Shown here: in pieces, positions 3,001-61,123 of the stretch | Layout of the letters: each line of letters opens with the position of its first letter | Position numbering within the stretch: position 1 is the first letter of the stretch | Program-made: the position numbers and the translations under genes | Assembly: GCF_046105845.1 (NCBI RefSeq) | Contig: NZ_CP151004.1 | DNA length: 64,000 nt | Strand: one strand, 5' to 3' | Origin: Escherichia coli | Lineage (GTDB): Bacteria > Pseudomonadota > Gammaproteobacteria > Enterobacterales > Enterobacteriaceae | Notes under the pieces: generated by a model | The model's database searches: none | The model's input: only the letters and a program-made list of their open reading frames with translations | Told to the model about the DNA's origin: nothing

Positions 3001-3368
3001 GTATCAAGAAATGGCGCAATGCTTTCAATCGCAGTGGTCTGGGCAGTCAGTTCTACGGGGGCTAATCCACCCGCAGCAGTATCGGCGAAGGTGACATGGG
3101 TTAGCTGTTGCCCATCGGCAAACACCAGTTCCGATTGTTCAGCTGTATTCGCCGCTTGCAGGAAATAACCGTTGCAGCGGATCACCGTGCCGTCCTGCAT
3201 ATAGATCAGCAGGTCATTTCCTTCACGGACGTAACGCGCAACGGCAGAGGCCTGAGCATGAACCTGCACCACGGAAGGCTCATAAATAACAACCGTGACG
3301 TCGCCAGGATTAATCAGCGTTTGTTTGACGGATGTTTTACGCGAAATAACATCAATAATCAGGCTCAT
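1..3368 (-). CDS. Giant tandem-repeat Ig-like adhesin, probable type I secretion substrate; 5' portion only, gene continues past window start
   Basis: Manual minus-strand translation from ATG at 3368-3366 (AGGAA 8 nt upstream) reads MSLIIDVISRKTSVKQTLINPGDVTVVIYEPSVVQVHAQA... with no stops over the stretch checked (3061-3368); downstream shows ~100-aa Thr/Val/Gly-rich repeats. Absent from ORF track because no stop lies in the window. Confidence 0.7.
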   Translation of the reverse strand, partial: MSLIIDVISRKTSVKQTLINPGDVTVVIYEPSVVQVHAQASAVARYVREGNDLLIYMQDGTVIRCNGYFLQAANTAEQSELVFADGQQLTHVTFADTAAGGLAPVELTAQTTAIESIAPFLDTVAQTSAFPWGWLAGAAVGGGALGALLASGGDGDSKTEVINNPTPPAEPVPEPGVATPSFLVIDNQGDQRGILATNDITDDTTPTFSGSGQAGATIQIKDSNGNTIASTQVDNNGHWSVSLPTQSAGEHTWSVVQIVGSTITDAGSITLTIDNSQASVQVATTAGDNIINASEQAAGFTLSGTSSHLAQGTELTVTLNGKTYTTSVGANGAWSVQVPTADAQALGEGNQAVLVSGKDATGNTVTGAQLLTVDTQPPTLAINTIAQDNIISAAEHNVALVLSGTSNAEAGQTVTLTVNGKSHTATVGSDGTWQVTLPATEVQALAEGNYAVNASVSDRAGNSTSHSANFTVDTSAPVVSVNTVAGDDILNNAEQAVAQIISGQVSGASPGDTVTVKLGTHVLTGIVLADGSWNVALDPAVTRTLDRGANTIFVTVTDTAGNTGAASRAITLVGVSPLITINTVSGDDIISGAEKGAPLTLTGSTQQAETGQTVTVTLAGQSFTTTVQADGSWSLTVPAAAMGNLPDGAVAITASVTDLSGNTGNTSRTITVDSQAPALSIDPLTADNIINAAESGQDLQITGTTDAQPGQTVTVTLNGQTYQGVVQPDGTWSVTVPAANVGALADGNATVTASVNDIAGNPTSVSRVALVDATPPVVTINPVATDNVINTPEHTQAQIISGTVTGAQAGDIVTVTLNNVDYTTVVDGSGNWSLGVPASVVSGLVDGSYPINVSVTDRAGNTGSQSLTVTVNTAAPVIGINTIAGDDVINASEKGADVQITGTSDQPANTAITVTLNGQNYTTTTDASGNWSVTVPASAVTALGQANYTVTAAVTSNIGNSATASHNVLVDSALPGVTINPVATDDIINAAEAGVAQTISGQVTGAAVGDAVTVTLGGNTYTTTVQPGLSWSVSIPADAIQALGNGDLTVSASVTNQNGNTGSGTRDITIDANLPGLRVDTVAGDDVVNIIEHGQALVVSGSSSGLAEGTPLTVTINNVEYT

Positions 3369-7653: not shown

Positions 7654-10158
7654 ATGTCACAAACTATCGACCTGACCCTGGACGGCCTGTCCTGCGGTCA
7701 CTGCGTTAAACGCGTGAAAGAAAGTCTCGAACAGCGCCCGGATGTTGAGCAGGCGGATGTGTCTGTCACTGAAGCGCACGTTACCGGGACTGCCAGTGCA
7801 GAACAGCTGATCGAAACCATCAAACAAGCGGGTTATGACGCATCTGTAAGCCACCCAAAGGCTAAACCGCTGGCGGAGTCATCAATCCCGTCGGAAGCAC
7901 TGACAGCGGTTTCTGAGGCGCTTCCGGCAGCGACCGCCGATGACGATGACAGCCAGCAGTTGCTGCTGAGCGGCATGAGCTGCGCCAGCTGTGTCACCCG
8001 CGTACAAAATGCGCTGCAAAGCGTACCGGGCGTCACTCAGGCACGGGTAAACCTGGCGGAGCGTACTGCGCTGGTGATGGGCAGTGCCTCCCCACAAGAT
8101 TTAGTGCAGGCGGTGGAAAAAGCGGGCTACGGCGCGGAAGCGATTGAAGATGACGCTAAACGCCGCGAGCGCCAGCAAGAAACCGCCGTCGCTACGATGA
8201 AGCGCTTCCGCTGGCAGGCGATTGTCGCACTGGCGGTGGGTATCCCGGTGATGGTCTGGGGGATGATCGGCGATAACATGATGGTCACCGCCGACAACCG
8301 CAGCCTGTGGTTGGTTATCGGCCTGATAACCCTGGCGGTAATGGTTTTCGCCGGCGGGCATTTTTACCGCAGCGCATGGAAAAGCCTGCTGAACGGTGCA
8401 GCGACGATGGATACGCTGGTGGCGCTAGGTACTGGCGTGGCGTGGCTCTATTCGATGAGCGTCAACCTGTGGCCGCAGTGGTTCCCGATGGAAGCGCGAC
8501 ATCTTTATTACGAAGCCAGTGCGATGATTATCGGTTTGATTAATCTCGGCCATATGCTGGAAGCACGCGCACGTCAGCGTTCTTCTAAGGCGCTGGAGAA
8601 ATTACTCGATTTAACCCCACCGACGGCGCGCCTGGTTACTGACGAAGGTGAAAAAAGCGTGCCTCTGGCAGAAGTGCAGCCAGGTATGTTGCTGCGCCTG
8701 ACGACCGGCGATCGCGTGCCGGTAGATGGCGAGATTACCCAGGGCGAAGCATGGCTGGATGAAGCGATGCTGACGGGCGAACCAATCCCGCAGCAAAAAG
8801 GCGAAGGCGATAGCGTCCATGCCGGGACAGTGGTACAGGACGGCAGTGTGCTGTTTCGTGCCAGTGCGGTCGGCAGCCATACTACGCTGTCACGAATCAT
8901 TCGCATGGTGCGCCAGGCCCAGAGCAGCAAGCCTGAAATCGGCCAACTGGCGGATAAAATCTCCGCTGTGTTTGTGCCGGTGGTGGTAGTCATTGCGCTG
9001 GTCAGTGCGGCAATCTGGTATTTCTTTGGCCCGGCACCGCAAATTGTTTATACCCTGGTGATTGCCACCACGGTGCTGATTATCGCCTGTCCGTGTGCGC
9101 TGGGACTGGCGACGCCGATGTCGATTATTTCGGGCGTCGGGCGGGCGGCTGAGTTTGGTGTGCTGGTGCGGGACGCCGACGCGCTGCAACGCGCCAGTAC
9201 GCTCGACACCGTGGTGTTCGATAAAACCGGGACGCTGACCGAAGGGAAGCCGCAGGTTGTCGCAGTAAAAACATTTGCTGATATTGATGAAGCGCAAGCA
9301 TTGCGTCTGGCGGCGGCGCTGGAGCAAGGTTCCAGCCACCCGCTGGCACGGGCGATCCTCGATAAAGCAGGTGATATGCAGCTACCGCAGGTCAACGGTT
9401 TCCGCACATTGCGCGGGCTGGGTGTGAGCGGTGAAGCTGAAGGTCATGCGGTATTGCTGGGCAATCAGGCGCTGTTAAATGACCAGCAAGTTGATACTAA
9501 AGCGATTGAGGCAGATATTTCAGCTCAGGCATCGCAAGGGGCAACGCCTGTGCTGCTGGCGGTTGACGGGAAAGCGGTGGCCTTGCTGGCAGTACGCGAT
9601 CCGTTGCGTAACGATAGCGTGGCGGCGCTGCAACGTCTGCATAAAGCGGGATATCGTCTGGTGATGTTGACCGGGGATAACCCAACCACCGCCAATGCGA
9701 TCGCCAAAGAAGCAGGGATTGATGAGGTGATCGCCGGGGTGCTGCCGGACGGTAAAGCCGAAGCGATCAAACGTCTGCAAAGTGAAGGACGTCAGGTGGC
9801 AATGGTGGGCGACGGCATTAACGACGCGCCAGCGCTGGCCCAGGCGGATGTCGGTATTGCGATGGGTGGCGGCAGTGATGTTGCCATTGAAACCGCGGCG
9901 ATTACCCTGATGCGCCATAGCCTGATGGGTGTTGCAGATGCGCTCGCGATTTCCCGCGCAACGCTGCGCAATATGAAGCAGAACCTGCTCGGTGCGTTTA
10001 TCTACAACAGCATTGGTATTCCGGTCGCCGCCGGTATTTTGTGGCCGTTCACTGGAACACTGCTTAACCCGGTGGTTGCCGGAGCGGCAATGGCGCTATC
10101 GTCGATTACCGTAGTGAGTAACGCCAACCGGTTACTGCGGTTTAAACCGAAAGAGTGA
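7654..10158 (+). CDS. copA: Cu(I)-translocating P-type ATPase
   Basis: 834-aa ORF with two N-terminal GMSCxxC metal-binding domains, CPC and DKTGT motifs. Confidence 0.96.
7854..7860 (+). other. copA: Programmed -1 ribosomal frameshift site in copA (slippery heptamer C CCA AAG) giving the CopA(Z) chaperone
   Basis: CCCAAAG lies in the 0 frame at codons 67-69; the -1 frame reads CCC AAA GGC TAA, terminating after ~70 aa. Confidence 0.7.
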
Positions 10159-10234
10159 TTGGTATTTACTTAATGCGTTTGTGAGATCCAGTTCTTGTTG
10201 CGCTCCTTTTATGAGTAATGCCATATAAAGTGAC

Positions 10235-10560
10235 TGGCGCAGGGAGCGCGCAGGGGGCGGCCAATCGCCGCCGCCCCCTGCCCCCCCGGGCTCTGGCGAA
10301 CAAAATCGCCGCTGCGCGGTACCCTCAGCTTATCCCTTGCGGCTACCGGGTCGGGCGCGAGGTAACATCCCTGTAAAACGCGCCCTCAGCCCACATCCAT
10401 GTGGGCTGCCCCGGCCTTCAGGGAACGCCTCGGCGATTTTGACGCCACCAACACCGGTGCAGTCTTTCGTTTCAAAGCAAAAACAATTTTTCGATCATAT
10501 TTAAGCTACCACTGAACAAGCCTCATAACTCCATTTGCGCCATCCCTCCCTGCGCGCTAG
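10235..10560. repeat. GC-rich intergenic element with nested inverted repeats, unknown function
   Basis: 10-bp inverted repeat gcgcagggag (10237-10246) / ctccctgcgc (10546-10555); inner inverted repeat aaaatcgccg (10302-10311) / cggcgatttt (10431-10440); perfect 11-bp GC stem 10251-10261 / 10270-10280; hairpin 10388-10407. No ORF of 60 aa or more. Confidence 0.4.
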
Positions 10561-10586: not shown

Positions 10587-11381
10587 ATGGATCTGTTGTA
10601 CCGGGTAAAAACGCTTTGGGCCGCGCTGCGCGGTAATCATTACACCTGGCCTGCTATCGATATCTCTCTTCCCGGCAATCGCCATTTTCATCTGCTCGGC
10701 AGTATTCATATGGGTAGCCACGATATGGCTCCCCTGCCCACCCGTTTGCTCAAAAAGCTCAAAAACGCCGATGCGCTGATCGTCGAGGCGGATGTTTCCA
10801 CCAGCGATACGCCTTTTGCTAATTTGCCTGCCTGCGAGGCGCTGGAAGAGCGCATTAGCGAGGAGCAACTCCAAAACCTGCAGCACATTAGCCAGGAGAT
10901 GGGCATTTCTACCTCACTCTTTTCTACCCAACCGCTGTGGCAAATCGCGATGGTTCTTCAGGCGACACAGGCGCAAAAACTGGGGCTGCGGGCAGAGTAT
11001 GGTATCGATTACCAGCTATTGCAGGCGGCGAAGCAACAACATAAATCCGTGATTGAACTGGAAGGGGCAGAAAACCAGATTGCCATGTTGCTCCAGCTCC
11101 CTGACAACGGACTGGCGCTGCTGGACGATACGCTGACCCACTGGCACACCAATGCACGGTTGCTGCAACAAATGATGAGCTGGTGGCTGAACACGCCGCC
11201 GCAAAATAATGAAATAACGCTGCCTAATACGTTCAGTCAGTCGCTGTACGATGTGTTGATGCATCAGCGAAATCTCGCCTGGCGGGATAAATTACGCGCC
11301 ATGCCGCCGGGGCGATATGTGGTCGCGGTCGGTGCACTACACCTGTATGGAGAAGGGAATTTACCGCAAATGTTGCGCTAA
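10587..11381 (+). CDS. ybaP: TraB-family protein YbaP
   Basis: 264-aa ORF matching recalled YbaP. Confidence 0.9.
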   Translation: MDLLYRVKTLWAALRGNHYTWPAIDISLPGNRHFHLLGSIHMGSHDMAPLPTRLLKKLKNADALIVEADVSTSDTPFANLPACEALEERISEEQLQNLQHISQEMGISTSLFSTQPLWQIAMVLQATQAQKLGLRAEYGIDYQLLQAAKQQHKSVIELEGAENQIAMLLQLPDNGLALLDDTLTHWHTNARLLQQMMSWWLNTPPQNNEITLPNTFSQSLYDVLMHQRNLAWRDKLRAMPPGRYVVAVGALHLYGEGNLPQMLR

Positions 11382-11463
11382 AAAAATGGCCAATATCGCT
11401 ATTGGCCCGTCAAAGAGGAATTTCATTTTTTTATTATTATGCCGTCACTTTAAGCGACGGTGT
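11381..11463 (-). ncRNA. chiX: ChiX (MicM/SroB) Hfq-dependent sRNA
   Basis: Minus strand reads ACACCGTCGCTTAAAGTGACGGCATAATAATAAAAAAATGAAATTCCTCTTTGACGGGCCAATAGCGATATTGGCCATTTTTTT, matching recalled ChiX including terminator hairpin and U-tract; in the ybaK-ybaP intergenic region as in K-12. Confidence 0.85.
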
Positions 11464-17111: not shown

Positions 17112-17914
<803 letters not shown>

Positions 17915-18018
17915 ATCAGCATACTTGTCCTTAGCCTTCTGCAGTGACAGCTGGTAGTACAGCGTGCTTCTGGCCAGCCCTGCAGCCTTTAACAGGTCAG
18001 ACTGGCAGTGTCCGCACC

Positions 18019-18549
18019 TCAGGCTCCGGATGACTTTCGTTTTTTCTCCAGCTCCTGGCGCTTTTTTTCCAGGAGATGCTCCTGCATGGCTTTCAGATAT
18101 GCATTTTCTGCGCGAAGATAACGCAGCTCATTCTTCATCTCTTCCGGCGTCATGTTTGCCTCGTTTTCATGGGTATCATCAGAACGGGTCATGCTTTTCT
18201 CCTTCCTGCGCCTGATAAAGGCCTCATTACCAGATTTGCGGTAGCCTTTTATCCAGTTTTTAACCGTGTTGTGGCTGGGAATGTTAAACCGGGCAGCTAC
18301 CCGGGGTAGAGACTCAGAATGCCCGAGAGCATAAAGAACCACGCAAAGTTTATCTTCAGGAGAATAGCTACGCTTGTGTCTGCAATCCAGTGCCCGAGGA
18401 CCGTGAAGAAGAAAAAGATTAATCCAGTGTGAGAGGCTGGTGTGAGAAAGTTGAAAGAGTTTTGCCGTAGAAATGATGCCTGCATGACCAGCCAGGTAAT
18501 GATTTACAGCGGCAAGTTTTACTTCAAATGAATGTTTCATAAACTGCAC
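18019..18549 (-). CDS. IS3-family transposase OrfA (HTH plus leucine zipper)
   Basis: 176-aa ORF; C-terminal heptad leucines (LRYLRAENAYLKAMQEHLLEKKRQELEKK). Confidence 0.85.
   Translation of the reverse strand: MQFMKHSFEVKLAAVNHYLAGHAGIISTAKLFQLSHTSLSHWINLFLLHGPRALDCRHKRSYSPEDKLCVVLYALGHSESLPRVAARFNIPSHNTVKNWIKGYRKSGNEAFIRRRKEKSMTRSDDTHENEANMTPEEMKNELRYLRAENAYLKAMQEHLLEKKRQELEKKRKSSGA
18061..18067 (-). other. A AAA AAG programmed -1 frameshift motif at the end of IS orfA
   Basis: Minus strand reads CTG GAA AAA AAG CGC in the orfA frame, the classical IS3-family slippery heptamer. Confidence 0.6.
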
Positions 18550-18591
18550 CTTCAGATGTCAGATTATGTCCAACATTTGGGGTGCAGTTCA

Positions 18592-18654
18592 GCCATCGCA
18601 TCAGGCATTGAGAGCAAAATGCCAGATGCGGCGTGAACGCCTTATCTGGCCTAC
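18592..18654. repeat. REP/BIME sequences: right half of the interrupted REP plus a second REP
   Basis: gccatcgcatcaggc completes the interrupted palindrome; gccagatgcggcgtgaacgccttatctggcctac (18621-18654) matches the REP consensus. Confidence 0.6.
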
Positions 18655-19973: not shown

Positions 19974-20124
19974 GGTTGTTTTTACGGGTGGTTAACTGAG
20001 CGGCGAATGTTAACACAATCTGACGGGAGCGCGCGAGACACAGCCAGTTTCAATATCAGCAGGCGGGATCGCATTTTCATGGCAGTGGTTCCTTACAATG
20101 ACGTAATTTGAAAGGAGTTTTTGC

Positions 20125-21084
20125 ATGAAGCCGGAAAACAAATTACCCGTTCTGGACCTTATTTCTGCTGAAATGAAGACCGTTGTGAATACTCTTCAGC
20201 CGGATTTACCGCCCTGGCCCGCAACGGGAACGATTGCTGAGCAACGACAGTATTACACACTTGAGCGCCGATTCTGGAATGCGGGCGCTCCAGAAATGGC
20301 AACCAGAGCTTACATGGTTCCAACAAAATATGGGCAGGTGGAAACACGTCTCTTTTGTCCGCAGCCAGATAGTCCGGCGACGCTATTTTATTTGCATGGC
20401 GGCGGTTTTATTCTCGGCAATCTCGATACCCACGATCGCATCATGCGCCTGCTGGCAAGCTACAGCCAATGTACGGTGATTGGCATTGATTACACCCTTT
20501 CACCTGAAGCGCGTTTTCCGCAAGCAATAGAGGAAATTGTGGCTGCCTGTTGTTATTTCCACCACCAGGCGGAAGATTATCAAATCAATATGTCCCGCAT
20601 TGGCTTTGCCGGTGATTCCGCAGGTGCCATGCTGGCGCTCGCCAGTGCGTTGTGGTTGCGTGATAAACAGATCGATTGCGGTAAAGTTGCGGGCGTTTTG
20701 CTGTGGTATGGGCTTTACGGATTACGGGATTCCGTGACTCGTCGTCTGTTGGGCGGTGTCTGGGATGGCTTAACGCAACAGGATTTACAGATGTATGAAG
20801 AGGCGTATTTAAGCAACGACGCGGACCGCGAGTCGCCGTATTACTGCCTGTTTAATAATGATCTCACTCGCGAAGTTCCGCCCTGTTTTATTGCCGGGGC
20901 GGAGTTCGATCCGCTGCTGGATGACAGCCGTCTGCTTTACCAGACGTTAGCGGCGCATCAGCAGCCCTGTGAGTTCAAACTCTACCCAGGCACGCTGCAC
21001 GCCTTTTTGCATTATTCACGGATGATGAAAACCGCCGACGAGGCTCTTCGCGACGGCGCTCAGTTCTTTACCGCTCAGCTTTAA
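20125..21084 (+). CDS. aes: Acetyl esterase
   Basis: 319-aa ORF with HGGG and GDSAG motifs. Confidence 0.93.
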
Positions 21085-22043
21085 CGATACGCGGCAACAA
21101 GATTAGCCATCATCTCGATATGTTCCGGCATGGCATTAAGCGCCGGAATATATTCATATTTTTTCCCGCCCGCACCGAGGAAGACCTCACGGTTTTGCTC
21201 GGCAATCTCTTCCAGCGTCTCCAGACAATCCGCAGCAAAGCCCGGGCACATCACCTGAATATGACCTACGCCTTTTTCTCCGAGCATTTTCAGCGTTTCG
21301 TCGGTATAAGGCATCAGCCAGGGTTCCCGACCAAAGCGCGACTGAAAGGTCATCATCACTTTTTCCGGTGCCATCCCCAGTGCGGAAGCCAGTTCACGAG
21401 TCGTTGTGCGGCAACGTTGCGGATAATCATCGCCTTCATCTGCATAACGCTGGGGAATGCCATGATAAGAGAGCAGCAGCAGATCCGGCTCGCCATGTTT
21501 AGCGAAAGAAGCACGTACGCTGTTCGCCAGTGCATTAATGTAATCGTGGTTATCGGCGTAATCACGAATAAACGATATCCCCGGAATGCTACGTTTGCGC
21601 GCCAGAATGCGTGCCAGTTCATCCCATACCGCACCGACCGTTGAACAGGAGTATTGCGGATAAAGCGGCAGCACCACAATATGATCTACATGCTCTGCCA
21701 GGAGTTCATCTACGGCGCTTTCCAGTGATGGCGAGCCGTAGCTCATTCCCAGCGCTACGGGCGTCTCCGGTAAACGTTGTGCCAGCGCCTGCTGTTGCTG
21801 GCGGCTGTAAACCATCAGCGGCGAGCCACCTTCCATCCAGACAGAAGCATACAGCTTCGCCACACGCGGCGAGCGCAGTGGCAAAATCACGCCGCGCAGC
21901 AACGGCCACCATAACAACCGTGAGGTATCAACCACGCGTCTGTCGCTTAAAAATTGTTTCAGATAGCGTTTTACCGCTTCAGGTGTGGGGGCATCGGGCG
22001 TACCCAGGTTTGCCAGCAGGATACCGGTTTTAGTCTGACGCAT
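21081..22043 (-). CDS. hemH: Ferrochelatase
   Basis: 320-aa ORF matching recalled HemH. Confidence 0.95.
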
Positions 22044-22174
22044 TACCGCCTCTTATCGATTCAACTTGTTGATAATTGTAGCGGAAAAGTGAAGAAGAAG
22101 AACTAATTGCTGTGAGAGGTATTGTCTGAGGAGGATGAGCAGACCTGCCCGAAAGCAGATCTGCTGCGGCTTGA

Positions 22175-22891
<717 letters not shown>

Positions 22892-22961: not shown

Positions 22962-22995
22962 AAAAATGCCGGATGACACGAAGGTCATCCGGCAT
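22962..22995 (-). terminator. Intrinsic terminator after htpG
   Basis: On the minus strand, hairpin GCCGGATGAC...GTCATCCGGC followed by a U-tract. Confidence 0.6.
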
Positions 22996-25970: not shown

Positions 25971-27902
25971 TCAAATGGGGCGGATACTTTCTTCATCCAG
26001 CTCCGCATCGAAGAACCGACGCAGGGTCTGAATATTATTATCCGCAATAATGGACTCGCGCGCCTGCGCAAGTTTTTCTTCGTATATCGCCTGACGCCAT
26101 TCCAGCGGCGTACGCACCGCGGGATTATCATCTTCAACGATAGTCAGTTCAACCGTTGAACCTTTTAACGTGCTCAACGCTTCAGCCAGTTTTTGCTGTG
26201 CACCGCGGTTGTTCAAATGCCGCTGAGAGGAGCGCAAATGCAGACATACTGCGTTGTCGCTCTCCTCTTTCCAGGCATTTAGCGCCACCTGTTCGACCAG
26301 TTTTGGTAGCGAAAGTTGGCTCACCTGTGCCGCCCACGGGTCGCGCTCAATGGCTTCTGCCGCCAGCTTCGCCGCCAGTTCCGGCGTTTTTTCATGTTCC
26401 AGCGCTTTTTTTAGCGCCTTCGGCGTGGCGACCACTTCTTTTTGCTGCATCACTGGAGTGGTGGCCTTCCAGCGATACGCTTCTTTTTTGGCTGGCGCTT
26501 TTTCCAGCGCCGATGGCACCGGGCGCGCCTGAACGCGATCGGTGACCGAAGCCAGTCTTTCCAGCGCAGCGTTATTCACCGGCCGCGCGCGGGTAGCGGC
26601 TGCCGGTTCACTCTTTTTTGCTTTGGTTGCTCCCTGCACGCGCTGCAACTGCTGGCGCGCCGCCAGCACCTGGCTGGTGGTTTCCGGGAGCGGTACAGTC
26701 GGTGCCTGCTGCGGCGCTGATTGCGGTTGCGGCGGCACCTGTGTTGGCGTCATTACTGCCGTTGGCGCGACGGGCGCAAAGGACTGGCGTGGCACTTCTG
26801 GCTCAGGCAGCGGCATACGCGGATGGAACGCCAGCGCGCGAAGCAGCGTCATCTCAACGCCCATACGGCGGTCTGGCGCATACGGTAATTCTTTGCGACC
26901 AATCAACAGCGTCTGATAGTAAAGCTGAATATCCGTCGGCGGTATGGTGCGCGCCAGTTCACGCATCCGCAGCTCGATGGCAGCCATGTCGTTGCCAAGT
27001 GCAGCAGGCGAAAGTTGTACCATCGCAATACGATGCAACAGACCGAGCATTTCCACCAGCAACGCTTCCCACTCGATACCACGGGCAGCGGCTTCATTAA
27101 TCAGCGCCATTACGCGCTCGCCGTTGGCCTCGACCATCGCTTCAACCAGCGACAGCGCCTGATCGTCGTCAAGCGTACCCAGCATCGCACTGACCGCCTG
27201 AGTTGAAACCTGGCCGTCACCGCTGGCAATCGCCTGGTCGGTCAGACTTAAGGCATCTCGCAGGCTGCCTTCAGCGGCGCGTGCCAGCAATTGCAGCGCC
27301 CGCGGCTCGTGAGCGATATGTTCTTCGTTGAGGATGTGCTCAAGCTGATGGCGAATTTGCTCGACATCCAGCGCCTTGAGATGAAATTGCAGACAACGTG
27401 ACAAAATCGTCACCGGCAATTTCTGCGGATCGGTCGTCGCCAGCAGAAACTTAACGTGCTCCGGCGGCTCTTCAAGGGTTTTTAACAGTGCGTTAAAGCT
27501 GTGGCGCGACAGCATATGCACTTCGTCGATCAAATAAACTTTGAAACGACCACGCGCCGGAGCGTACTGGACGTTATCCAGCAGGTCGCGGGTATCTTCA
27601 ACTTTGGTGCGCGAGGCGGCGTCGATTTCAATCAGATCGACAAAGCGCCCCTGCTCGATTTCACGACAGTTATCGCACACGCCGCACGGCGTCGCGGTAA
27701 TGCCGGTTTCGCAGTTTAGCCCCTTCGCCAGCAGTCGGGCGATAGAGGTTTTTCCGACGCCACGGGTACCGGAAAAAAGATAAGCATGATGAATACGCCC
27801 TAACGACAAGCCGTTCGCCAGTGCGGTCAGCACATGTTCCTGGCCGACGACGTCAGCAAAGGTTTGTGGGCGCCATTTTCGGGCTAAGACCTGATAACTC
27901 AT
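25971..27902 (-). CDS. dnaX: DNA polymerase III subunits tau and gamma
   Basis: 643-aa ORF with AAA+ motifs (GTRGVGKT) and internal frameshift site. Confidence 0.97.
   Translation of the reverse strand: MSYQVLARKWRPQTFADVVGQEHVLTALANGLSLGRIHHAYLFSGTRGVGKTSIARLLAKGLNCETGITATPCGVCDNCREIEQGRFVDLIEIDAASRTKVEDTRDLLDNVQYAPARGRFKVYLIDEVHMLSRHSFNALLKTLEEPPEHVKFLLATTDPQKLPVTILSRCLQFHLKALDVEQIRHQLEHILNEEHIAHEPRALQLLARAAEGSLRDALSLTDQAIASGDGQVSTQAVSAMLGTLDDDQALSLVEAMVEANGERVMALINEAAARGIEWEALLVEMLGLLHRIAMVQLSPAALGNDMAAIELRMRELARTIPPTDIQLYYQTLLIGRKELPYAPDRRMGVEMTLLRALAFHPRMPLPEPEVPRQSFAPVAPTAVMTPTQVPPQPQSAPQQAPTVPLPETTSQVLAARQQLQRVQGATKAKKSEPAAATRARPVNNAALERLASVTDRVQARPVPSALEKAPAKKEAYRWKATTPVMQQKEVVATPKALKKALEHEKTPELAAKLAAEAIERDPWAAQVSQLSLPKLVEQVALNAWKEESDNAVCLHLRSSQRHLNNRGAQQKLAEALSTLKGSTVELTIVEDDNPAVRTPLEWRQAIYEEKLAQARESIIADNNIQTLRRFFDAELDEESIRPI
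26613..26619 (-). other. dnaX: dnaX programmed -1 frameshift site (A AAA AAG) producing gamma
   Basis: Minus strand reads GCAGGGAGCAACCAAAGCAAAAAAGAGTGAACCGGCAGCC...: SD-like AGGGAG upstream, heptamer, then a stem-loop; the -1 frame stops at GAG TGA. Confidence 0.85.
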
Positions 27903-43262: not shown

Positions 43263-43376
43263 GGGTGGGGGCCCTGCCAGCTACATCCCGGCACACGCGT
43301 CATCTGCCTTGGCTGCTTCCTTCCGGACCTGACCTGGTAAACAGAGTAGCGTTGCGGGAGAACCAACAGAGCCCCC
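43263..43376 (-). ncRNA. ffs: 4.5S RNA (signal recognition particle RNA)
   Basis: Minus strand reads GGGGGCTCTGTTGGTTCTCCCGCAACGCTACTCTGTTTACCAGGTCAGGTCCGGAAGGAAGCAGCCAAGGCAGATGACGCGTGTGCCGGGATGTAGCTGGCAGGGCCCCCACCC, matching recalled 114-nt ffs. Confidence 0.95.
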
Positions 43377-60936: not shown

Positions 60937-61018
60937 AGAGCTCTCTCTTAGTTTAATTTCCGCCAGGTAATCAGATGACACGACTGTGCTTCACGCCATC
61001 TATTAACATGTACGTCAG

Positions 61019-61046
61019 TATATGGGGATGTTTCCCCCACATTCAA
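61019..61046 (-). promoter_or_regulatory. Heat-shock (sigma32-type) promoter of lon
   Basis: Minus strand reads TTGAAT (-35), 13-nt spacer, CCCCATATA (-10). Confidence 0.55.
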
Positions 61047-61123
61047 CGCCGAGAATAGAGGAAAAATTAAAGGGGAGATAAAATCCCCCCTTTTTGGTTA
61101 ACTAATTGTATGGGAATGGTTAA

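Follow-up and report, generated by a model that had tools for sequence, protein, structure and literature searches.

Where do two convergent mRNAs end when no DNA separates the genes that encode them? The question is raised by aes and hemH, which meet tail to tail in a 64,000-nucleotide stretch of Escherichia coli DNA (RefSeq assembly GCF_046105845.1, contig NZ_CP151004.1), referred to here as the window. From the lack of intergenic space, the initial annotation concluded that there was no room for a terminator and that antisense read-through may arise. Our comparisons, together with published transcription data from strain MG1655, very probably identify the locus as a tail-to-tail YTAR junction, at which the overlapping transcript ends are short, the 3'-end signals lie in the coding sequence (CDS) of the partner gene and the hemH transcript is cut by Rho.

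The junction and its two genes

The window reads C TT TAA CG at 21079–21086 (in the broader context of 21070–21092, ...ACC GCT CAG CTT TAA CGA TAC GCG...). The aes gene ends in ...ACC GCT CAG CTT TAA (protein ...TAQL), with its TAA stop at 21082–21084, and hemH ends on the minus strand in ...GCC GCG TAT CGT TAA (protein ...AAYR), its stop being read from the TTA at 21081–21083; the two stop codons interlock and have 2 nt in common (21082–21083). The overlap of these convergent genes at their stop codons had been placed at 21081–21084, and the sequence and the ORFs confirm those coordinates exactly. Were the overlap an artefact of annotation or ORF calling, one of the proteins would truly stop earlier or elsewhere, and nothing was found in favor of this beyond the general caution that a mis-called frame can yield a 4-nt overlap. 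Both products match curated equivalog models up to the last residue (Aes with NCBIfam NF007547, 630 bits over residues 1–319 of 319; HemH with TIGR00109, 447 bits over residues 1–319), the C-terminus of Aes is that of the crystal structures PDB 4KRX and 4KRY, and the stop positions of both genes are kept in more than 20 distinct orthologous loci. A comparison of HemH with solved structures returned no close match. We give the artefact practically no credence; aes and hemH are real, intact genes that both end at this junction.

A 600-nt segment spanning the junction was found in 5424 of 5426 complete E. coli genomes, and the annotation was always aes beside hemH. The identical 4-nt overlap is annotated in a K-12-like RefSeq chromosome (aes 498238..499197, hemH 497279..498241) and in strain 118UI (RefSeq), the closest complete genome, which is ~99% identical to the window. 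Nearly all other E. coli, and every other Escherichia locus compared, carry TTAG rather than TTAA at the four junction positions. A G at 21084 gives a TAG stop for aes and CGC as the last Arg codon of hemH, the A of the window gives TAA and CGT, and each allele preserves both stops. The TTAA allele is rare within E. coli, with an exact match to the 61-mer in at most 1 of 5147 complete genomes. A sequencing error or an oddity specific to the window was considered and rejected, given the ordinary substitution spectrum relative to 118UI (~1% differences) and the occurrence of TTAA in Salmonella as well.

In the orthologous loci compared, Escherichia, Salmonella and the aes-bearing Citrobacter all keep the flush junction. 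The overlap measured 4 nt in Escherichia sp., E. whittamii, Salmonella enterica (TTAA, with Aes 4 residues longer), C. sedlakii and C. freundii, 0 nt in one Citrobacter MAG and 26 nt in E. marmotae and E. albertii; in C. amalonaticus the genes were separated by a gap of 2 nt. None of the junctions compared had a spacer between aes and hemH big enough for a terminator. The 26-nt overlap results from loss of the aes stop through a 13-nt deletion in the 3' end of the gene (regions 3133–3141 and 3445–3470 in L010, E. albertii NBRC 107761, and 3444–3469 in L014, E. marmotae). In the E. albertii type strain NBRC 107761, aes also appears frameshifted near residue 212, which may mark a pseudogene or an assembly error. 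The aes gene is missing in C. koseri, Scandinavium and several metagenome contigs, where hemH and gsk are co-directional and 63–76 nt apart. Loci L017 and L018, with L026, L033, L058 and L110 from metagenomes, show that enterobacteria differ in whether aes occupies this site. The gene is found at unrelated loci in Enterobacter lignolyticus and Edwardsiella, adjoining a gene of the CaiF/GrlA family.

Several observations concern other parts of the window. About 1.4 kb at 17160–18595 is missing from 118UI and holds a pair of overlapping ORFs on the minus strand (176 aa and 240 aa), the longer of which matches an IS3-family transposase model at 300 bits (cutoff 160). This segment looks like an IS150-like insertion in the convergent ybaL-gsk spacer, and the repeat search returned no inverted repeats there. 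Some 380 nt near the copA/ybaP spacer (10154–10533) did not align to 118UI (gap there ~120 nt), a difference that is probably a repeat element. The adk-hemH spacer (22044–22174) is 131 nt long in the window and in 118UI versus 235 nt in a K-12-like sequence (L001 3764–3998), and the extra ~104 nt could be a REP-type insertion. MG1655 has a listed 3' end from Term-seq, given as 116 nt upstream of hemH, with a printed coordinate, 497939, that does not fit the offset (PMC7815308 supplementary file 3). A small hairpin and T-run overlap the adk stop codon (22167–22181, plus strand), and immediately downstream of htpG the minus strand carries a strong terminator-like hairpin of 12 bp with 7 GC pairs (22966–22995), after which comes TTTTCTTTTC. 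An Rfam scan of the whole window, which returned no RNA family at or near the junction, gave gathering-score matches to the sraA sRNA (61008–61103, plus strand), the small SRP RNA ffs (43272–43368, minus strand), the DnaX frameshifting element (26574–26638, minus strand) and the sroB sRNA (11380–11463, minus strand), all of them expected residents of this E. coli region.

Candidate 3'-end signals inside the partner genes

With no intergenic space, full-length aes and hemH mRNAs must be complementary at their 3' ends; the 3' UTR of each would be antisense to the last codons of the other, and 3'-end signals would be written into coding sequence. The earlier statement that a terminator has no room is correct as far as an intergenic or bidirectional terminator is concerned. 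It goes too far with respect to termination itself, which does occur, with its signals probably in the partner CDS. A bidirectional intergenic terminator was rejected as a candidate on two grounds, namely that there is no spacer and that each of the hairpins described below has a U-run on one side only. The features of the junction are collected in Table 1.

Table 1. Coding sequences and predicted signals at the aes-hemH junction, in window positions.
Feature	Positions	Strand	Location and basis
aes (acetyl esterase) CDS, 319 aa	20125..21084	+	ORF list, NF007547, PDB 4KRX, RefSeq
hemH (ferrochelatase) CDS, 320 aa	21081..22043	-	ORF list, TIGR00109, RefSeq
TTAA tetranucleotide, 4-nt CDS overlap of aes and hemH	21081..21084		Window sequence
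Terminator-like hairpin and T-run	21118..21164	+	Inside hemH codons ~294-309; fold, scan, conservation
Weaker terminator-like hairpin	21020..21057	-	Inside aes codons ~299-311; fold
C-rich, G-poor stretch, C/G 1.5-2.6; candidate rut region	20620..20840	-	Composition profile
C-rich, G-poor stretch, C/G up to 2.2; candidate rut region, back-up termination	21144..21304	+	Composition profile

On the aes strand, arms at 21118–21129 and 21142–21153 form a stem of 13–15 bp whose core pairs CCGGC with GCCGG. The tail TCATATTTTTT comes after it (T6 at 21159–21164), and the element as a whole lies 34–80 nt beyond the aes stop. It is a stable, G+C-containing stem-loop of the kind that defines terminators, with a folding energy of -19.0 kcal/mol in the window and -23.3 kcal/mol in the K-12-like sequence. 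In the latter, the consensus terminator scan flagged the hairpin (15 pairs, 6 of them G-C, with a loop of 8 and the tail CATATTTTTT); the tail UCAUAUUUUUU passes the scan rule of 5 T in 8, but the U6 run begins 5 nt after the stem. In the window the scan flagged nothing at the junction, since A in place of G at 21130 (HemH T305M) enlarges the loop of this hairpin. Met305 is also found in HemH of Escherichia sp. MOD1-EC7003 (L003). The T-run is broken in the C. freundii group (CATATTGCTT). In Term-seq data from three conditions no RNA 3' end maps to the U-tract (PMC7815308), for which low aes expression may be the explanation, and the element thus remains a prediction; the predicted site of 3'-end formation for the aes mRNA is here, ~75–80 nt beyond the aes stop.

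In the arms of this hairpin, 10 orthologues shared 7 of 7 synonymous codons and Salmonella kept 5 of 6, against a gene-wide codon identity of 0.52–0.57. Compared with synonymous recodings of the same peptide, the hairpin was more stable than 99.5% in K-12 and than 96–99% in Salmonella, Citrobacter and E. marmotae; the window version surpassed only 90%.

The hairpin was also compared between loci with and without aes, using distinct 60-mers from a metagenome scan for the HemH motif YEYIPALNA and from the loci fetched earlier. An enterobacterial C-terminus (...YR*/YC*) was required, which removed distant ferrochelatases and unrelated proteins carrying the motif YEYIPAFNA. The stem was present in all 24 distinct aes-adjacent 60-mers (-16.4 to -26.1 kcal/mol, median -21.4), whereas it was absent from all 7 distinct aes-less ones (-7.0 to -18.0 kcal/mol, median -10.4), a difference in stability with a Mann-Whitney p of 5e-5, as calculated without phylogenetic correction. 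The 5' arm is encoded by HemH Pro306-Glu307-His-Ile (Pro306-Glu307 being CCGGAA), and aes-less genomes read AAH, TAH, AEH or PQH. It may be, though we rate this as less likely than not, that the hairpin and T-run are a selected 3'-end element for the aes mRNA, either a terminator or a protective stem-loop. If so, selection on the aes RNA would constrain hemH codons and even the residues Pro306-Glu307, and the association would offer a small, testable case of dual coding, in which the same bases specify a protein and an RNA signal of the neighboring gene.

On the hemH strand, the GC-rich stem (21057–21031) starts 24 nt beyond the hemH stop and is followed by the tail UUUUCAUCAU. Its folding energy of -17.6 kcal/mol compares with -10.1 +/- 3.0 kcal/mol for synonymous recodings (fraction 0.011). 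The hairpin is kept within Escherichia, and its U-run decays in Salmonella and some Citrobacter; the consensus terminator scan of the window did not flag it. Further into aes, hemH read-through RNA contains a C-rich stretch at +240 to +460 nt from the hemH stop, thus providing the C-rich, G-poor untranslated RNA upstream of the release region that characterizes Rho-dependent terminators. As a candidate rut region, it is consistent with a bicyclomycin-sensitive drop centred at MG1655 position 498060 (see below). The corresponding stretch in aes read-through RNA lies +60 to +220 nt beyond the aes stop.

Transcription across the junction in strain MG1655

Strand-specific RNA-seq over the 3' ends had been proposed as the check on antisense read-through, and published MG1655 data already supply the answer: the hemH and aes transcripts overlap, the pair being among 165 convergent transcript overlaps (excludons) detected in at least half of 58 RNA-seq samples from MG1655 (ExcludonFinder, PMC12288877). 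The "may" of the earlier claim is therefore outdated. Inclusion in that list is almost automatic for this pair, since the CDSs overlap and any two full-length mRNAs must overlap with them.

The extent of hemH read-through is addressed by the Rho data of Adams et al. (2021; PMC7815308 supplementary file 2), in which Rho terminates hemH-strand transcription in a region peaking at 498060 (+), equivalent to window position 21262 (Rho score 4.02, p = 1.1e-17). Over the 800 nt on either side, DirectRNA-seq gave upstream/downstream counts of 163/51 without bicyclomycin and 425/535 with it; hemH-strand coverage thus falls to ~31% across the junction, and the fall disappears when Rho is inhibited by bicyclomycin, which indicates that hemH read-through is limited by Rho. 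The hemH stop is 181 nt downstream of the peak, which derives from 800-nt windows and so does not give the exact place of termination; some termination may be intragenic. A second Rho region, antisense to aes, peaks at 499332 (+), or window position 19990, with counts of 79/24 without and 422/522 with bicyclomycin (PMC7815308). It falls in the divergent aes-gsk spacer (window 19974–20124, minus strand), just upstream of the gsk start. It may reflect the place where RNA reading through antisense to aes is terminated, or else attenuation within the leader of gsk. On the aes strand, no Rho termination region is listed for LB between 484378 and 501016 (PMC7815308), possibly owing to low aes expression. 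Term-seq 3' ends assigned to hemH or aes are likewise absent from the three growth conditions of the same study (supplementary file 1); low efficiency of the embedded hairpins, or gene expression too weak for detection, may account for this. A search of the TERMITe supplements for hemH and aes returned no entries.

Antisense RNA over the two genes can be gauged from the entries for these genes in Table S1c of Huang et al. (PMC7373196). Wild-type sense/antisense values were 12.3/8.0 RPM for aes and 34.3/2.5 RPM for hemH, compared with 200.6/3.4 for adk and 212.4/5.0 for htpG. On these values, antisense RNA amounts to 65% of sense over aes and 7% over hemH, and for each gene it equals ~20–25% of the sense level of its partner. 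Part of these antisense reads could come from internal antisense promoters rather than from read-through.

If the missing terminator left read-through unrestricted, each transcript would run far into or across its partner and yield full-length antisense RNAs. Some antisense signal is indeed present over both genes in the entries of Huang et al., no canonical terminator was flagged near the junction in the window, and with bicyclomycin hemH-strand coverage is undiminished across aes (425/535 and 422/522). With Rho active, however, that coverage falls to 31%; antisense RNA over hemH, again in the entries of Huang et al., reaches only 7% of hemH sense and ~20% of aes sense; and terminator-like hairpins and C-rich stretches lie just beyond each stop. 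Full-length read-through is thus very improbable as the usual outcome. The prediction of antisense read-through is borne out by the published overlap (PMC12288877) and the antisense reads (PMC7373196), but the read-through is limited, the hemH strand being cut by Rho to ~31%. Termination inside the coding regions had been held to contradict read-through; it does not, as an RNA that ends within the partner ORF is itself a short antisense read-through.

A further question is whether the overlap has a regulatory role, that is, whether the pair acts as a functional convergent excludon in which transcription of one gene, for instance stress-induced hemH, represses the other through polymerase collision or through cutting of the 3' duplex by RNase III, making the expression of the two mutually exclusive. 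Besides the listing of the pair among the 165 excludons of MG1655 and the retention of the flush junction from Escherichia to Salmonella, the entries of Huang et al. offer antisense RNA over aes at 65% of sense and p19-captured dsRNA for both genes (hemH 45–77 RPM, aes 6–29 RPM). These dsRNA levels are moderate and unremarkable, however, short of the 100 RPM that the top 13.5% of genes attain (PMC7373196). Among the rows listed there, the only perfect RNase III duplex for hemH lies at 497319–497340, at the 5' end of the gene and not at the junction, and the rnc mutants show no increase in the sense RNA of aes (12.3, 13.7 and 8.2 RPM). The dsRNA tables, to the extent that they list these genes, do not suggest excludon function for hemH-aes. 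Further points against such a role are the near-automatic nature of the listing, a literature search that found no report of reciprocal hemH-aes expression, and the existence of related genomes without aes at this site. We regard a regulatory excludon as unlikely, if somewhat less so than unrestricted read-through.

We therefore return to short overlaps with 3'-end signals in the partner CDS, for which the following course of events may be proposed. Transcripts of hemH enter aes in antisense and are ended mainly by Rho, as the bicyclomycin data show at coarse resolution. The embedded hemH-strand hairpin and U-run may help, backed by Rho loading on the C-rich stretch further in. For aes, the signal would be the hairpin and T-run in hemH, acting as an intrinsic terminator or as a stem-loop that protects the 3' end; that aes transcripts end at this hairpin, or are trimmed back to it, is a possibility to which we assign somewhat less than even chances. 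The outcome would be a 3' antisense overlap or duplex of tens to a few hundred nt, at a low level.

Comparison with known overlaps, excludons and terminators

The aes-hemH overlap is already known, from the RefSeq annotation and the published excludon list, and is of a common kind; with the transcript overlap already catalogued, it carries little weight in itself. Its value is modest and lies in providing a clean, conserved case of spacer-less genes that form their 3' ends through Rho and through structures in the partner CDS. The sole item that appears mildly new, on the basis of the sequences compared, is that the embedded aes-strand hairpin tracks the presence of aes, which amounts to a modest prediction. 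Among 8 convergent pairs in ~65 kb around the locus in strain 118UI, aes-hemH alone lacks a spacer; the rest are 30–129 nt apart.

Convergent stop codons can interlock only as YTAR tetranucleotides, the modal class of convergent overlaps (PMC2174442), and across 58 genomes the 4-nt CTAA, TTAA, CTAG and TTAG overlaps stand out as a discontinuity (mode) among convergent overlaps (Lillo & Krakauer 2007, PMC2174442). With interlocked convergent stops (TTAA) and two real protein-coding genes, aes-hemH belongs to this class. The terminators of such overlapping genes have to sit in coding sequence, and of the 58 convergent overlaps counted in E. coli, 21 had a predicted embedded rho-independent terminator, for one gene in 19 cases and for both in 2 (PMC2174442). 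The aes-hemH pair is the same in kind, in that its termination signals must fall in the partner CDS; within E. coli, the TTAA allele of the window is rare and TTAG is the norm. The 26-nt variant of E. marmotae and E. albertii shows in nature how an overlap can lengthen through stop loss, a route considered in the same study.

With respect to convergent excludons (PMC12288877), the exact hemH-aes pair is listed and fits the stated tendency to short spacers. The outcome that defines excludons is mutually exclusive expression with RNase III processing, whereas hemH-aes is documented for transcript overlap only. Bidirectional intrinsic terminators share with this locus the need to end two convergent transcripts in little space; they do so through a single spacer hairpin with an A-tract on one side and a U-tract on the other, while aes-hemH would employ two one-directional hairpins, each in the ORF of the partner. 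The suppression of antisense and read-through transcription by Rho (PMC7815308) has in common with aes-hemH the bicyclomycin-sensitive drop of the hemH strand at the junction and over antisense aes, as well as a C-rich, G-poor stretch in the untranslated read-through RNA of hemH. The locus differs in that its release sites are known only coarsely and that no Rho region was detected on the aes strand.
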